Shown: positions 30,845 through 37,505 of the stretch, piece after piece
How positions within the stretch are numbered: the stretch's first letter is position 1
Layout: the number at the start of each line of letters is the position of its first letter
Sequence record: OP870145.1
DNA: 64,000 bases
Direction: 5' to 3' (one strand)
Source of the DNA: Escherichia phage vB_Eco_F26
Translations under genes and position numbers: made by a program
Notes under the pieces: generated by a model
Told to the model about the DNA's origin: nothing
Database searches by the model: none
Seen by the model: the letters and a program-made list of their open reading frames with translations, nothing else

Positions 30845-31234
30845 TTAACGATTAAAATCAGCTGCGATTGTTTCGGCAACAATTTGAGCAGCAACAATCA
30901 GACGTTCATCTGCATTACCGCAATAATCATCTTCAAGGCGTTCACCACATGAAGTCATAATAAATTTAGCACCAGCATTTAGAGATTCTGCCGTATGTTT
31001 GCGCATCAGTTCAATCCATTTATCACTAACTTCACGATCGATAGCTTCATAATACGCATGACGAGCAGGTGCAGATTTAATTTTGTTCTGAATAACTTCC
31101 ATCGCGTTATCAGAAAGAGACAAAACCCATGCTCGACGAATTTTATTTTGGTTTTGTGGATTTGATTCAGAACGCACGTGTTTTGGCTGAATATCTTTTA
31201 CATCAACAGTATAATTCACGGTAATTTTAGTCAT
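30845..31234 (-). CDS. rpbA: RNA polymerase binding protein RpbA-like (129 aa)
   Basis: 129 aa; locus between 46 and 45. Confidence 0.6.
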
Positions 31235-31243
31235 AATACACCT

Positions 31244-31432
31244 TTAGTCATAATAATCAGTAACAGTCCAAGCTTCATTTCTGTTGGACATTATTTTCGT
31301 ATATTCTGATTTAAATGCATTCTTAAGCATAGATTCAGTAACTATATGCTCTTCATTAGAAAAATTATTTCTCAGAATATATCGTTTTATTTCAGGAATA
31401 GTTAATAGATGCTGTCCAGTTGAATATTCCAT
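31244..31432 (-). CDS. hypothetical protein (62 aa)
   Basis: ORF. Confidence 0.4.
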   Translation of the reverse strand: MEYSTGQHLLTIPEIKRYILRNNFSNEEHIVTESMLKNAFKSEYTKIMSNRNEAWTVTDYYD

Positions 31433-31487
31433 GTTTTTCCTCCATAGAGATTATACTCTAATAAATTAAAGCATAATCTCTTATAAA

Positions 31488-33170
31488 TTAAACCATTACA
31501 GTAAATCGACCGACTTTCTTCATTTGAAGATGCTGACCATATTCTTGCGGGTCATGGTCTTTATGTGAAATTATAAAAACATTAGTGTTTTTCATTGAAT
31601 TTATAATATTAGCTACACCTTTAATACCTTCGGCATCAAATGACCCGTCAAACACTTCATCGAGTATTAATGTACTAATACTAACACCAGATACAATAGA
31701 AGCAATATCACGCCAAGTAAATAAAAGAGCAATATCAATTCTTGCTTTTTCGCCTTCACTAAATGAAGCATAACTAAAATCTTCACGACCACGGGATTTA
31801 ATTGTCTCATTAAATTCTTCATCTAATGTAAACACATAATCCGCTTCCATTATTTTAAGATAATGGTTAATCTGCTTATTAAATAATGGAATGTACTTTT
31901 TAATAATAGCACCTTTAATACCAGAATCTTTGAGCATATCAGTCAAAATTCCTCGGTGGTATTTTTCCATTACTAAATTAGTTTTTGTCTTAACAATTTT
32001 ATCAAGTTCTTCTTGAAGCAGTGCTATTTCATCAGCATGGTCAATAAACTCAGAAGATGCTTTTTCTATAGCTGCTTTAACTTTTTTGGCTTTATCTACC
32101 GTCGTGATTAGAGATTGCTTTTTATTGCGAATATCATTTGCCAACGACTGTTGGGTTTTAATATTATCTCGGTATTCATCAACAAGAACTTTTAAATTAT
32201 CACGATGTGTTGAAAGCTGTTCAAACGAATGCGTACATTCAGAAACTTTATCTTTAATTTTAGAAACAACTTTATCACCGGAACTCAATTGTGACAAACA
32301 GGTTGGACATAATCCACCTTCGTGATACATATTAATGACTTTATTATACGAGTCAATTTTTGATTTAATTAAAAATGCTTCTTGACCGATTTTATTAAAT
32401 GCATCAGTTGGGTCTTCATCCAAAACAATATTAACTAATCTTTCATTAGCTTCTTCTATTTCCGATTTTAGCGTTCTAGCTTCTTTTGCCAAATCATCAT
32501 ACATATTTTGCAGACGAGTAAGGTTGTCACCCGTTAATTTTTTCTGGCGTTCAACGTTATCATTATATATTTTAATTTGTTGGATAATACTATCTTTTTT
32601 AACATCAAGCACTTGGTTCTGCGAATTTAATTCGCGTATTAGTGCTTTATTAAGCTTATCCATTTCAGCTAATGTTCCTACCTCAAGCAGGTCTTCCACA
32701 AGCTTTCTTCGTGCAGGGGTCGACAACCCCATGAAAGGGGTATACCCTGCTGTACCAAGGACAACAATCTGCTTGAAACTGGCATATGACATTCCGATAA
32801 GCTGTTCAAATTCTGCTTGGAAATCTTTACTGCTGGCAGATTCATTAAGACGTGTACCGTTAACGGTGATTTCGAAAACGTTTGGTTTTTGTCCTCTTTT
32901 GATATAATACTTTTTCTCATCATATTCCATCCACAGTTCAACTAAAAGTTCTTTCTTATTTGTGCTGTTTATTAATTGACCTTTCTTTACATCACGAAAT
33001 GGTTTGCCAAAAAGCCCAAATGTGATGGCTTCTAACATAGTAGACTTACCACCGCCATTTCGTCCAGTAATAAGAGTTTTTTGAACCTTATCTAATTGAA
33101 TGTCAACTCCATTTTGACCAACTGACATTATATTTTTATATTTTACTCTATTAAGTTTAAATGATTTCAT
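31488..33170 (-). CDS. 46: recombination endonuclease subunit gp46 (Rad50/SbcC-like), 560 aa
   Basis: Walker A GRNGGGKST, long coiled-coil with CxxC zinc hook (CPTC), C-terminal Walker B/D-loop. Confidence 0.9.
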   Translation of the reverse strand: MKSFKLNRVKYKNIMSVGQNGVDIQLDKVQKTLITGRNGGGKSTMLEAITFGLFGKPFRDVKKGQLINSTNKKELLVELWMEYDEKKYYIKRGQKPNVFEITVNGTRLNESASSKDFQAEFEQLIGMSYASFKQIVVLGTAGYTPFMGLSTPARRKLVEDLLEVGTLAEMDKLNKALIRELNSQNQVLDVKKDSIIQQIKIYNDNVERQKKLTGDNLTRLQNMYDDLAKEARTLKSEIEEANERLVNIVLDEDPTDAFNKIGQEAFLIKSKIDSYNKVINMYHEGGLCPTCLSQLSSGDKVVSKIKDKVSECTHSFEQLSTHRDNLKVLVDEYRDNIKTQQSLANDIRNKKQSLITTVDKAKKVKAAIEKASSEFIDHADEIALLQEELDKIVKTKTNLVMEKYHRGILTDMLKDSGIKGAIIKKYIPLFNKQINHYLKIMEADYVFTLDEEFNETIKSRGREDFSYASFSEGEKARIDIALLFTWRDIASIVSGVSISTLILDEVFDGSFDAEGIKGVANIINSMKNTNVFIISHKDHDPQEYGQHLQMKKVGRFTVMV

Positions 33171-33185
33171 TTTGTATCCAATTGT

Positions 33186-34040
33186 TCACAATGAAGAAAA
33201 TTCTTTAACTAAAGCCTGTAATGAAGCCTCTATTGGATATCCATTCTTAACTAACATTTTCCTAAACATCACATGTTTAGGACGATTATATGATATCCAC
33301 AATTCATACAATTTATCTTTATTATCCCAATGATAGCCTTTTCGTCGAGATGCTATATGAGCTTTTCTAATCTCCGGATTTTTCCAACTAGCAGCTACTG
33401 AATTTGATATAGCTATTTTATATTCAGGTTTTGATAAAGCAGCACGAACAGCCTTTTGGTGTTTAATTTTATTTTCTTCGTTATTAAACCATTCCCTTGA
33501 AGCCATTGAAATTTTTTGTTTTGTTTTAAAATTATTTAATCTTTCTTTGTTATCTTTCCTATTTTTTGCTACTGAAAAATATTTTAATGCCCTTTCTCTA
33601 GCAGCATTTCTATTTTGCGGATTTGAATAATATTGTTGAAGCCTTTTTGATATTGTGTCACTTACATCTTGTTTTATAAAACTATATTCAGCAGCTATTA
33701 AATCAACTTCGGCTAAAGATAAATTTTTATATGTTTTTCCTGACATCATTCTATTTAAAGCATTTAGCATTTTTCCATTTTTACCTTTTGCTAATAAGAA
33801 ATGTGCTTTAAAATGATTAAAATGACTTAAATTAACTAAATTCCATGTAGATTTTAAATATTCAGGAAATATTGATTTAGGAAGCACGTGATGTGCTTCC
33901 GTTTTACCTGGAGTTTTAACAGTTGAATTCATAGAAATAAAATTAATATAAGACTTGGCGTCTTCTTCACTCAACGCTAATTTTTCAACTAATTCCTTTA
34001 TTAAAAATTCATCATTAAGGTCAAGTTTAAAATTCTTCAC
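33186..34040 (-). mobile_element. HNH homing endonuclease (284 aa) inserted between genes 46 and 47
   Basis: HNH motif EAHHVLPKS...NLVNLSHFNHFKAHF; basic C-terminal DNA-binding repeats. Confidence 0.7.
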
Positions 34041-34300
34041 AAAAGATTCCTTTTAATGTATCTTTTAGACCATTCTATCATATCATCATAATCTAAAAAG
34101 TATTCATCAAATTCAGCCATGCAAACAACACCTTGTGCTGCTTTTGATGTGATATAAATTATTCCAACATATCTAGAATCTTCTTCGGTATAATCAATAT
34201 TTGCTATGAATTCATCATTAATGTCAAATGTCGAAAACTTCACAATACGCATCCTTAATACAAGATACAGCCATATCTTGTAATGATTTAGGTGTGTCAT
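34037..34300 (-). CDS. hypothetical protein (87 aa)
   Basis: ORF. Confidence 0.4.
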   Translation of the reverse strand: MTHLNHYKIWLYLVLRMRIVKFSTFDINDEFIANIDYTEEDSRYVGIIYITSKAAQGVVCMAEFDEYFLDYDDMIEWSKRYIKRNLL

Positions 34301-34487
34301 TATCTAAAATGTTGAAGTTAAAAGATACAGCCCAGTCAGTGCAGACCGTAACCTTTTTAATACAATTATCTTCAACCTCTAACGGTTCAAACCAATATTC
34401 AATAATTTCTTTATGACCAATATCATCTTTTACTTCGCATTCAAAATGCTGACTCATCATAACATTTTTAAATTCATCAAAAGTCAT
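34224..34487 (-). CDS. hypothetical protein (87 aa)
   Basis: ORF overlapping neighbours. Confidence 0.35.
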   Translation of the reverse strand: MTFDEFKNVMMSQHFECEVKDDIGHKEIIEYWFEPLEVEDNCIKKVTVCTDWAVSFNFNILDNDTPKSLQDMAVSCIKDAYCEVFDI

Positions 34488-35503
34488 TGTGTTGCCTCTA
34501 CATATAGCTGATTTGCATATTGAATAAGTGCTTCACGATCAGAATCAGTGATGTCTGGAATTGCATTAATGTATTCTTCCATCAACGTCTGAAGAGATTG
34601 AACTTCAACTTCTTCACTGTCATCTGACTCGACAGAGTTATCAATCTTTGACACAACTCGTAATGAATGCACAACTTTTTCTAGTTCAGATTCGAACTTC
34701 GTTAGATTTTTGTCTACTTCAGTTACTATAACACGTACTGATAGATTTGTAAAATCTTTATAGTCAATTTTTCCTTTAAATGGATAATGAATTCTACGAT
34801 GCCAGGTAGTGTTGTTTGGAATAAATTCCATTCGTTCTGTTTCTGTATCAAACATCCAGAACCCACGAGGGTCATTCTCGTCACCTGCAGTTAGTGTCCA
34901 TGGTGTCCCAATATATCTGACGTTAGCAGCCTCAGAGATAGTATGGAAGTGACCAGACCACACTTCTTTATAAGTCTTAAGGAAATCAGGTTCAAGACCG
35001 TGAGATTTCATTCCTTTATAAAAATAAAATCCGTTCAGTTCCCAGTGACCAACACAAAAAGAAGCAGATGAAGTTTTGATGTGTTCAAGAATTTCACCAG
35101 TATTTTCTTCACACATCCAAGGAATCAAATCAATCAAACACCCGTCAAAATCTACTGTAGTAGGCTTATCATATACTTTAACATTAGGATATTTAGCCAA
35201 AAGCTCAGTAGAGGCATTTGGATGCATTACATTTTTATAGTGGAGATCGTGATTTCCTACAATAGTGTGTAATGTAATTCCAGCATCATCAAGCGTTTGA
35301 ACTATTTCACGGGCAAACTCCATAGTTTTATGTGTGATCGCTTTTCTCACATCAAAAATATCACCATATTGAATCCAGGTAGTAATTCCATTTTTCTTAG
35401 AATATTCTATTGCTTGTTTAATTCCATCAATTTGAATACCGCGAATCCACTCATCATCAGCTTTAACGCCTAAATGCCAATCACCCAAGTTTAGTATTTT
35501 CAT
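34484..35503 (-). CDS. 47: recombination nuclease subunit gp47 (Mre11/SbcD-like), 339 aa
   Basis: Calcineurin-like phosphoesterase motifs GDWHLG, GNHD; 339 aa. Confidence 0.9.
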   Translation of the reverse strand: MKILNLGDWHLGVKADDEWIRGIQIDGIKQAIEYSKKNGITTWIQYGDIFDVRKAITHKTMEFAREIVQTLDDAGITLHTIVGNHDLHYKNVMHPNASTELLAKYPNVKVYDKPTTVDFDGCLIDLIPWMCEENTGEILEHIKTSSASFCVGHWELNGFYFYKGMKSHGLEPDFLKTYKEVWSGHFHTISEAANVRYIGTPWTLTAGDENDPRGFWMFDTETERMEFIPNNTTWHRRIHYPFKGKIDYKDFTNLSVRVIVTEVDKNLTKFESELEKVVHSLRVVSKIDNSVESDDSEEVEVQSLQTLMEEYINAIPDITDSDREALIQYANQLYVEATQ

Positions 35504-36104
35504 GGTGTCTTTTCCATCCTAATTTAGCTGCTTTTGAAACTAGTTCTTTAATTTTTCCTTTTGTCCATTCAGGACCAGGAGGTTCATGACATAACATTTG
35601 CTTAACTCCGTTATTATACCATTTTTTACCTTTATTATGTGATGAAGCTTTAAATTTATTTGACCTTCCTTTTACATAACCTTCTGGAATATAAGGCAAA
35701 AAGGCAGATTTTCCTGTTAATGGATCATGTGAATGTATATTTCCTTTACAATTATGAGAACCATATAATGGATGATTTTGTCCTTTGTTATCTCTTCCAA
35801 ATGAACCTTTTGGAGCAGCATATGACATATTAAAGAATAATGGATTTTTAACTGCATCATGCAATCGTTGATAATATAACTCGCATTTAATAGCTTCTTC
35901 ACGCGTATCAAATTCAGCTAAAATGCATGAATCAAATAAGTGAGGATTATCTGAAAGCTCTTTATTATAAATTTTCTTATACTTTTTAGATAAAACTGAA
36001 CCATGATATCCAGCTAAATGCCTATCTAAAGACGTAGATCCAATATAAAAAGGAGGAAGTTTATCTCCACTATATATTGTTAAATAAGTTATATATTTTT
36101 TCAT
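35481..36104 (-). mobile_element. GIY-YIG-like endonuclease (207 aa) between gene 47 and alpha-gt
   Basis: N-terminal YITYL...PPFYIGSTS (GIY-YIG-like), NUMOD3-like repeats (NHPLYGSHN). Confidence 0.5.
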
Positions 36105-36264
36105 ATATCAAGAACCGTCATTGAAATGCAAAATAAAATTATTGAAATAAATCCATCTGGAGTGCTAAAGAACCCAATCCAACATGCTCTAGTGAATAGA
36201 TAAAATGCAAGAAAAAGTATCACATATCCAAGAAATATCATTATATCAAACTCCGTATAAAGCT

Positions 36265-36282
36265 AAAGGGCCGAAGCCCTTT
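36265..36282 (-). terminator. GC hairpin with tetraloop overlapping alpha-gt stop; followed by MotA-box-like + TATAAT
   Basis: aaagggc/gcccttt stem around cgaa; downstream TAGCTTTA-N12-TATAAT. Confidence 0.45.
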
Positions 36283-37483
36283 ATTTTGTAATAATGTCAA
36301 ACTGTTCTTTAAAGCAGAAGCTTGAATCTTGATGCTGATACAAAAATTCATACGCTTTTTCTCGCTCACGGTCATAAAGAGCTCGGTCAGATGACAGTTC
36401 TTTAATACGTTCAAATGTTGATTCCATGTCATTTTCATCAAACCAAACGATACCGCTATCGTGTGAAATTAATGGAGTGTTATCAACACGGAATTTTAAA
36501 TTTTCGCCAGTAGATTTCCAAAATACTGGAATTGTTCCACATGCGCCAAGCTCGAGATGAGTATATTCTAAAGAACGTTGTAGATATTTTTTATCTAATT
36601 TACTCAGCTGATAACCAAATCCGGATTTACTCATGCGTTCAAGCATTTCGCTATTTACATAACGGTCGAGAATTTGCGTTGGCAAATTAGGAGCAATTTT
36701 AATTTGGTCTACTTGATGAAGACGATAATACTCGTATGGAATTCCTTTTTCTTTAATAGGAATGAACGCTGGAGAACGTTCCAGACCTTCCATAATAGTA
36801 CTTAGTCCTGCAGGTTTAAGATGTTTTTCATGAAAATCAAACATCTGATAAAAGCCTTTCCATGTAGTAGTACGACCAATCCAACGGTTGATATTCATGT
36901 TAATTTCAGAAACATCTTTCCAGTAGGTTGACCGAACCTTCGCAATATCCATAGGAGGCTGAAAATTATATACTGTTGGTGCTTCTTCAATATCATCAAA
37001 CAGAGAAACAGTTTCTGGATACCATTCTTTCATCAGAACTTTATTAAAATCGCCATTATCAGAATGACTAAAAATAACATCAGCTCGACGAACAGTTTCT
37101 TCTAATCCCAAATTTCGACGCAAAGAAAGAACAGAATGATCATGCTGATAAACTACAACACGAATAGAAGGTTTAATATTATCTAAAAGTTTTTTATAGT
37201 TATTAATCGTGGCTTCTTGAACGGAAGTAGCAGGAACAGAATTAATAATTAGAATATCACAATCATTTACCAGCTTAAGTGTTTTATCGTATTCTTTAGC
37301 TAAAATAACTGGAATTGAAAATGATTTATAATCATGCGCGCAATTACGGGTAAATGATTTATCTTTAGCATAAACCAAAGTTACTTCATGACCATTTTTA
37401 ATAAACCAATCACGCTGCTCAAGAGAAAATTTAGTTACACCGCAACCTTCAAGACCCCGAGCCAGAAAAATGCATACTTTCAT
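36281..37483 (-). CDS. a-gt: alpha-glucosyltransferase (400 aa)
   Basis: 400 aa; locus between 47 and 55; GT-B-like architecture. Confidence 0.75.
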   Translation of the reverse strand: MKVCIFLARGLEGCGVTKFSLEQRDWFIKNGHEVTLVYAKDKSFTRNCAHDYKSFSIPVILAKEYDKTLKLVNDCDILIINSVPATSVQEATINNYKKLLDNIKPSIRVVVYQHDHSVLSLRRNLGLEETVRRADVIFSHSDNGDFNKVLMKEWYPETVSLFDDIEEAPTVYNFQPPMDIAKVRSTYWKDVSEINMNINRWIGRTTTWKGFYQMFDFHEKHLKPAGLSTIMEGLERSPAFIPIKEKGIPYEYYRLHQVDQIKIAPNLPTQILDRYVNSEMLERMSKSGFGYQLSKLDKKYLQRSLEYTHLELGACGTIPVFWKSTGENLKFRVDNTPLISHDSGIVWFDENDMESTFERIKELSSDRALYDREREKAYEFLYQHQDSSFCFKEQFDIITK

Positions 37484-37505
37484 TTAATATCCTCTTTGTT
37501 TTGGT

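Follow-up and report, generated by a model that had tools for sequence, protein, structure and literature searches.

Homing enzymes such as SegF, SegG, and MobE cut the neighboring gene of a phage that lacks the homing endonuclease gene (HEG), and markers flanking the cut are coconverted. In crosses of T4 with T2, SegF and SegG reportedly carry out this intronless homing with localized marker exclusion. All three are listed among the T4 homing enzymes in a review by Edgell (PMC2988022), whose table gives MobE as the only experimentally active Mob protein, with nrdB as its target, and lists the activity and target of MobD as not determined. MobE is an HNH enzyme encoded between nrdA and nrdB, and it adjoins a conserved DNA metabolism gene that is its listed target. 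The intron-encoded enzymes I-HmuI and I-TevI combine a small nuclease domain with extended helical DNA-binding modules downstream of it.

Here we describe a HEG attached to gene 46 in Escherichia phage vB_Eco_F26 (OP870145.1), based on a 64,000-nucleotide stretch (the window) that is a T4-like Tequatrovirus segment with its replication and recombination genes on the minus strand. Its product belongs to the same family as MobE, although it is closer to MobD, and the site predicted for it lies in gene 46 instead of nrdB. It appears to share the plan of I-HmuI and I-TevI, but no intron is involved and gene 46 is uninterrupted. The mechanistic model drawn from SegF and SegG matches this locus, where a linked patch of substitutions and patch-only alleles form the pattern that the model predicts; SegF and SegG, however, are GIY-YIG enzymes with experimental evidence behind them, whereas this gene is of the HNH type and its evidence is comparative.

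A Mob-type HNH gene beside gene 46

A sequence-only reading of the window had described a 284-aa HNH ORF that, along with two 87-aa ORFs, separated genes 46 and 47, possibly as a lineage-specific insertion using an essential operon as a safe haven. The ORF occupies exactly positions 33186 to 34040 of the minus strand, is intact, and runs from a GTG start to a TGA stop. Pfam and PHROG matches identify the genes on either side as gene 46, encoding a 560-aa Rad50/SbcC-like ATPase (31488 to 33170, minus strand), and gene 47, encoding an Mre11/SbcD-like nuclease (34484 to 35503, minus strand), the first gene of a co-oriented run. As proposed, the HNH ORF is missing from this locus in T4, which is collinear with the window on both sides and leaves over an insertion of 870 bp.

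The two 87-aa ORFs are another matter. They are T4 genes 46.1 and 46.2, both present in T4 between genes 47 and 46, and thus are not part of any insertion; since they are native, genes 46 and 47 are already separated in T4. Gene 46.2 (34224 to 34487, minus strand) matches Pfam family T4_Y03C (E = 1e-43). Gene 46.1, an 87-aa ORF at 34037 to 34300, matches DUF5487 (Pfam E = 2e-48) and encodes 68 aa when read from the T4-type GTG at 34243 (34037 to 34243, minus strand); its stop overlaps the HEG start. Salmonella phage S16 also has a 46.1-like frame between genes 47 and 46, with a GTG overlapping the gene 47 stop (locus L026, 2091 to 2294), of which the last 40 codons alone are annotated, perhaps because of a truncated annotation or a gene in decay. 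For Escherichia phage HP3.2, only the gene 46 and gene 47 portions of the query match (51% coverage), suggesting that genes 46.1 and 46.2 are both missing there.

That the 284-aa ORF is not a chance reading frame follows from its matches to PHROG 655 (homing endonuclease, E = 1.6e-44) and PHROG 12434 (HNH endonuclease, E = 4e-15) and from its similarity to MobD. MobD is the closest T4 protein (30% identity over 243 aa, pairwise E = 2e-18), and the match spans the product from the nuclease core to the C terminus, with a TE-HH...N...H..AH core and a C-terminal G-HW...LY-LWI-NRPK...GYP module in common. MobB is similar in the nuclease core only (32% over 98 aa, E = 1e-8), and mobE-annotated genes of VR5 and RB43 match more weakly (27 to 28% identity, E = 2e-7 to 2e-6) in a tblastn search in which mobD-annotated genes matched too. 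The window HEG and mobD are both free-standing, promoterless cassettes (for MobD, see PMC2988022), but mobD lies elsewhere, at the nrdC.11/mobD.1 locus, and its enzyme presumably has another target; the window product also has about 20 extra N-terminal residues compared to MobD, partly captured from genes 46 and 46.1.

The predicted HNH (beta-beta-alpha-metal) nuclease core covers roughly aa 40 to 100 (33741 to 33923, minus strand) and is supported by the conserved motif, the predicted fold, and profile matches in the PDB. The motif is retained on profile alignment: H50 (33891 to 33893), H51 (33888 to 33890), H76 (33813 to 33815), and H80 (33801 to 33803), all on the minus strand, are invariant along with P54 across 45 homologues, and N67 (33840 to 33842, minus strand) is at least 90% conserved. 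In the AlphaFold2 model (pLDDT 88.8), strands at residues 47 to 51 and 68 to 72 and a helix at 73 to 84 give the strand-strand-helix order of a beta-beta-alpha-metal layout, with pLDDT above 90 for residues 47 to 84; downstream of this predicted core, the C-terminal half is a long array of short helices. When the profile of the N-terminal domain was compared with the PDB, all six matches were HNH nucleases with HH...N...H in register, each of them weak (E from 0.06 to 1.3); they include McrA, a group II intron maturase, pyocin AP41, and Cas8f-HNH. NUMOD3 occurs in 25 of the 45 homologues, NUMOD1 or I-HmuI-NUMOD-like domains occur in others, and the family profile matches the DNA-binding domain of I-TevI (E = 0.0014). 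Pfam and NCBIfam scans of the product itself returned no curated family, including no Pfam HNH model and no NUMOD match. Also in this region, an 8-bp perfect hairpin (GGAAGCAC-ATCAC-GTGCTTCC, containing CACGTG) at 33880 to 33900 lies exactly over the EAHHVLP active-site codons and was flagged on the plus strand by a terminator scan; it is probably due to chance, with about 0.1 expected in 855 bp by a rough estimate.

By homology and predicted fold, the product is a member of the T4 Mob (HNH) family and a free-standing homing endonuclease. From comparisons among genomes we infer that it is enzymatically active, as well as the position at which it would cut and the allele that would be sensitive. 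The gene has been annotated before, T6 and T2 included, with the label homing endonuclease in RefSeq for T6, PP01, and others, and it is a known kind of element that is uncharacterized experimentally; our literature searches found no paper describing or characterizing the HEG beside gene 46. Table 5 of Petrov et al. 2010 (PMC2993671) counts one "other HNH" gene in each of T2, T6, and RB51, and this is probably the same gene. What we add is the anatomy of the insertion, with its capture of the gene 46 start; its repeated presence at one site in three genera; the linked patch, which T4 also carries; and a predicted target.

Anatomy of the insertion

Relative to T4 and all HEG-less relatives, the window carries an 870-bp insertion at 33162 to 34031 (minus strand) located by BLAST against T4 and by an alignment of 22 genomes, its placement being ambiguous by a 9-bp repeat. 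HEG-bearing genomes in that alignment are exactly 870 bp longer, and the window remains collinear with T4 at 97.5 to 97.9% identity over 31186 to 33161 and 34023 to 35503. The insertion point lies inside the first codons of gene 46. One copy of the 9-bp direct repeat, TTTAAACTT, lies on the left at 34023 to 34031, where codons 4 to 6 of the original gene 46 start now serve as HEG codons 4 to 6; the other lies on the right at 33153 to 33161, as codons 4 to 6 of the present gene 46 (both minus strand).

In T4, the GTG of gene 46 overlaps the stop of gene 46.1 (TTGTGA). In the window that same start, the original gene 46 GTG plus codons 2 to 6 (MKNFKL; 34023 to 34040, minus strand), heads the HEG instead, with 18 of 18 nucleotides identical to T4 (GTGAAGAATTTTAAACTT), and it is now the HEG start that overlaps the gene 46.1 stop as GTGA. 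HEG codons 7 to 12 (DLNDEF; 34005 to 34022, minus strand) are a copy of codons 7 to 12 of gene 46.1. They fall in a 46-nt direct repeat (33997 to 34042 and 34200 to 34245, 76% identity), and in T6, where the residues are DINDEF, there are 19 nt of exact identity with gene 46.1. With a gene 46 start followed by gene 46.1 codons, the 5' end of the ORF is a chimera of host starts, and its codons 7 to 12 may be a relic of an earlier arrangement. At the other end, the element provides gene 46 with a new start (33162 to 33185, minus strand), consisting of a 15-nt spacer, ACAATTGGATACAAA, after the HEG TGA and then ATG AAA TCA. Gene 46 accordingly begins at a new ATG 15 nt past the HEG stop (ATGAAATCATTTAAACTT, MKSFKL...), and MKS replaces MKN. 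The GC content of the HEG is 0.282, compared to 0.34 for the window.

Signals for independent expression were not in excess. A scan for sigma-70-like promoters found 17 sites in the region compared to 14.7 +/- 3.6 expected from shuffled sequences, no T4 late-promoter box was found there, and a terminator scan gave no excess over shuffles. RNA folding gave z-scores of about 0 at both starts (that of the HEG and the new one of gene 46) and at the T4 junction, and thus no evidence of a hairpin hiding a ribosome binding site. We suggest that the HEG is a promoterless cassette translated by coupling to gene 46.1 through the old initiation region of gene 46. A group I intron or RNA gene was rejected, as an Rfam search of 31000 to 37000 found no family at E values up to 1 and gene 46 reads without interruption over 560 aa and is collinear with T4 gp46. 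An intein-associated endonuclease was likewise rejected, since the HEG frame is closed by its own stop, which precedes the gene 46 ATG by 15 nt.

Other mobile or possibly mobile genes were also noted in these genomes. The window has a second HEG-like gene, a 207-aa GIY-YIG/Seg-like ORF (35481 to 36104, minus strand) between genes 47 and 47.1, in an insertion at 35504 to 36097. It matches PHROG 10820 (E = 1e-94), with a Pfam GIY-YIG match (E = 3e-4) that falls below the cutoff; it is absent from T4 and from the nine other HNH-bearing loci retrieved and present in 65 of 520 phage records. Beside it, codons 3 to 6 of gene 47 (35486 to 35497) carry four synonymous changes found in the window alone among 22 aligned genomes, a linked patch of the same kind as that in gene 46. 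T4 mobB, which lies between a-gt and a-gt.2, is missing in the window, where those genes are adjacent at 37475 to 37498. In RB51, RB32, and F2, a mobB-like endonuclease gene on the opposite strand occupies the 3' end of gene 46, between genes 45.2 and 46 (L002, 773 to 1486; L021, 1574 to 2290; and L007, 5976 to 6692, respectively); the window lacks it, with the empty site at 31433 to 31487. RB51 and F2 accordingly have an endonuclease gene on each side of gene 46. Between gene 45 and rpbA, EC121 and GRNsp7 carry an additional ORF of 248 to 295 aa (L016, 761 to 1507, and L018, 762 to 1649) that is missing in T4 and the window and may be another mobile insertion.

Distribution of the gene and the linked patch in gene 46

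The HEG is present, with precise junctions, in 71 of about 500 closely related Tequatrovirus records, and no copy falls below 98.4% identity. Intact copies occur in T6, PP01, EC121, C2-3, and others; the gene is frameshifted in T2 (a 2-bp deletion), RB51 and RB68 (a 1-bp deletion in an A-run), and G2133, and absent from T4, RB32, ime09, HY01, and others, amounting to 86% of relatives. About 48 of 60 copies among those listed keep the full-length span; decay by frameshift is typical of such elements. Nucleotide diversity within the HEG is 0.010, versus 0.02 to 0.04 in the flanks. A search of IMG/VR with gp46.2 returned only six loci, all HEG-less, which served as controls.

Related genes occupy the equivalent position in two further genera. 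In Gelderlandvirus (Melville and SEA1) and Mosigvirus (F2 and AV113), HEG homologues 42% identical to that of the window lie directly upstream of gene 46, in about 5 of 16 and 10 of 163 records, respectively. GenBank calls those of Melville and F2 MobD-like homing endonucleases; they resemble the window HEG over about 270 aa, in their site upstream of gene 46, and in having a linked patch. Their junctions differ: in Melville and F2 the end of the HEG and the beginning of gene 46 share 14 nt, whereas the window has the 15-nt spacer and no overlap. The Gelderlandvirus gene sits between genes 47 and 46, and the Mosigvirus gene replaces 46.1. In F2, the HEG opens with the first seven codons of an RB69-type 46.1 (MTKTDYE), whereas in the window 46.1 is kept and the HEG bears codons 1 to 6 of gene 46; resident starts have thus been captured repeatedly. 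In line with the proposal of a lineage-specific insertion, the HEG is found in only about 14% of close relatives; the site holds related HEGs in three genera.

We compared diversity between ten HEG-bearing and twelve HEG-less Tequatrovirus loci. The two groups are undifferentiated in genes 47, 46.2, and 46.1 and in most of gene 46 (dxy about equal to pi, 0.02 to 0.04). Over nt 1 to 66 of gene 46, pi among HEG-bearing loci falls to 0 and dxy rises to 0.18. The HEG-linked substitution patch, defined by this comparison, covers nt 10 to 66 of gene 46 (codons 4 to 22; 33105 to 33161, minus strand). Eight of the twelve HEG-less genomes share an allele, here called B-type, with 14 differences from the HEG-bearing allele within 33153 to 33107 and then none in the next 84 nt; the window and RB32, for example, differ at 14 of the 57 positions of the patch and at none of the following 84. 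In a census of 517 records with a 150-nt B-type probe, about 360 were B-type, 73 were T4-type, and 71 carried the HEG, all of the latter in identity bands other than that of B-type.

The same clustering is found in the other genera. Between Melville and STML-198 there are 22 differences in nt 10 to 66 of gene 46 and 1 in nt 67 to 300, and between SEA1 and S16 there are 25 and 2; the Mosigvirus pairs F2 and RB69, and AV113 and PhAPEC2, each have 12 and then 6. Across the three genera, 12 to 25 differences in 57 nt stand against 0 to 7 in the next 84 to 234 nt (binomial P of 1e-7 to 1e-32). The hallmark of intronless homing, a HEG linked to a short tract of flanking polymorphism with undifferentiated distant flanks, is therefore present in three genera, and the patch accounts for a puzzling block of synonymous and nonsynonymous changes at the start of gene 46 among phages otherwise 97 to 98% identical.

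At the protein level, HEG-less genomes of the three genera have ...Y-Q-N-I-M-S-V-G-G-[N/S]-P-I-D-I in common, and HEG-bearing genomes agree in having CAA (Q) at codon 19 and a residue other than Q at position 12. Across gp46 homologues more widely, the consensus at position 12 is K (K12) and a G at position 19 (G19) is rare, which makes the patch look like the native sequence of another lineage and not an odd protein variant. The nearest of the gp46 representatives surveyed in which K12 and Q19 are native, P0060, is 54% identical. An ancestral B-type for the entire gp46 family was rejected on this survey, and claims about B-type are restricted to the three genera examined. The patch of Melville is AT-rich and T-even-like, with nt 10 to 33 identical to T4 at 24 of 24 positions in a gene 46 that is otherwise about 21% divergent, and this points to import together with the HEG. 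Some gp46 homologues in our survey (P0069 to P0077, P0081, P0101, P0103, and P0112) are 730 to 790 aa long compared to about 570 and match gp46 in two or three separated stretches, a pattern that inteins, or in-frame insertions of another sort, could produce in gene 46 of other phages.

Some genomes have the patch and no HEG. T4, natural isolates such as fPS-2, and two IMG/VR contigs are of this kind, differing from the HEG-bearing allele at two bases. Mosigvirus WFK also lacks a HEG and keeps 46.1 and the RB69-type ATG AAA TCA start, yet its codons 12 to 22 are exactly those of F2. A simple deletion of the HEG between the 9-bp repeats would suffice for T4 but not for WFK, because WFK retains 46.1; a short gene conversion tract from a HEG-bearing genome can account for WFK, so we prefer patch-only conversion as the general route. 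The T4 and WFK tracts overlap in nt 34 to 63 of gene 46 (33137 to 33108, minus strand), which is our proposed site of enzyme action on B-type DNA, and the predicted cleavage region in HEG-less B-type alleles.

Probable homing on gene 46 and competing readings

We consider it probable that this element moves by intronless homing, in which the common HEG-less B-type allele is cleaved and the patch is coconverted, probably immune sequence. Having no promoter of its own, the HEG would be expressed from within the 47 > 46.2 > 46.1 > 46 run and read from the original ribosome binding site and GTG of gene 46, while the 3' end of the element would supply gene 46 with its replacement ATG and first codons, so that an essential gene stays intact. 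During a mixed infection, the enzyme would nick or cut a HEG-less B-type gene 46 within roughly codons 12 to 21. Recombinational repair copying the HEG-bearing genome would then bring in the HEG and about 50 bp of donor gene 46, and markers nearest the break would be coconverted with or without the HEG. The patch probably renders its carrier immune to its own enzyme, and repairs copying the patch alone would yield immune, HEG-less alleles such as that of T4. For the left junction of the T-evens, with its gene 46 codons 1 to 6 and 46.1 codons 7 to 12, we can only speculate that it arose when a HEG already standing in place of 46.1, the F2 arrangement, was copied into a genome retaining 46.1 and rejoined by microhomology at the broken end.

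The safe haven suggested earlier is a weaker description than the evidence allows, as HEGs at the same position and the patch fit site-specific homing to the 5' end of gene 46. The initial observation of an HNH gene at this locus is confirmed, and the interpretation placed on it is supported in part. Whether a single Mob-like lineage has specialized on the 5' end of gene 46 in at least three Tevenvirinae genera, capturing the resident start at each entry (that of gene 46 in the T-evens and of 46.1 in Mosigvirus) and dragging along an immunity patch of about 50 bp, we regard as an even question.

One alternative reverses the polarity. The homing site would be the patch-bearing empty allele (the T4 type, or the WFK type in Mosigvirus), with a recognition site spanning the insertion point; B-type would be resistant, and only patch-type genomes could be invaded. 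Adding exactly 870 bp between the 9-bp repeats does turn the T4 allele into the HEG-bearing one, patch-type empty alleles are known in two genera, and the predominance of B-type among HEG-less alleles (about 360 of the 517 records) is as expected if it escapes cleavage. However, the origin of the patch is then left unexplained, with its 12 to 25 substitutions and a left edge that coincides with the HEG junction in three genera, as is the AT-rich, T-even-like patch of Melville (24 of 24 nt matching T4 over nt 10 to 33) inside a gene 21% divergent. In Mosigvirus the HEG replaces 46.1, and so no simple empty site exists, and SegF, SegG, and MobE act on the neighboring gene of the HEG-less phage and coconvert flanking markers. 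Because neither the source of the patch nor its sharp HEG-adjacent boundary in three genera is explained, we find this polarity less parsimonious and unlikely.

Vertical inheritance with repeated loss of the HEG, the patch being ordinary lineage-specific divergence and not a footprint of homing, would suit the single site and identical junctions of all Tequatrovirus copies and the decay of some of them, but we give it very little weight: it is contradicted by the undifferentiated flanks of HEG-bearing and HEG-less genomes (dxy about equal to pi), whereas HEG and patch form one near-invariant haplotype, by the confinement of divergence to 57 nt (P of 1e-7 to 1e-32), and by the chimeric HEG junctions, in which the host codons are not the same from genus to genus.

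It is similarly improbable that the HEG product has been co-opted for phage benefit, instead of or besides selfish homing, by excluding competing T-even phages from mixed infections or by promoting recombination or amplification locally. T4 HEGs are known to cause marker exclusion (PMC2993671), and a recent paper reports that a Seg endonuclease of T6 promotes segmental amplification of antidefense loci and so aids immune evasion (PMC13096335). The full-length span kept by about 48 of 60 HEG copies among those listed would also agree with a useful function, but nothing in the sequence data requires such a role; the gene is absent from 86% of relatives, and its inactivation in T2, RB51, and G2133 has had no obvious effect.

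Under the intronless homing that we favor, the target of the HEG is a subunit of the gp46/gp47 nuclease, which is itself listed as a possible exonuclease in homing repair (PMC2988022). Taken alone, the HEG is one more selfish endonuclease gene in a HEG-rich group of phages, and its value lies in being a clean natural example. Since the element recurs in three genera with a sharply bounded patch, since patch-only genomes include T4, and since intact and broken copies exist in the classic laboratory phages T6 and T2, homing, the length of the coconversion tract, and target immunity are directly testable with standard strains. If a single Mob-like lineage has indeed specialized on gene 46, T4 would be a patch-only convertant or a former carrier, and codons 6 to 21 of its gene 46 would be a fossil of the element. 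Hundreds of T-even genomes, in their A/B polymorphism between patch-bearing and B-type alleles, would then hold a standing record of an arms race between an endonuclease and its target.
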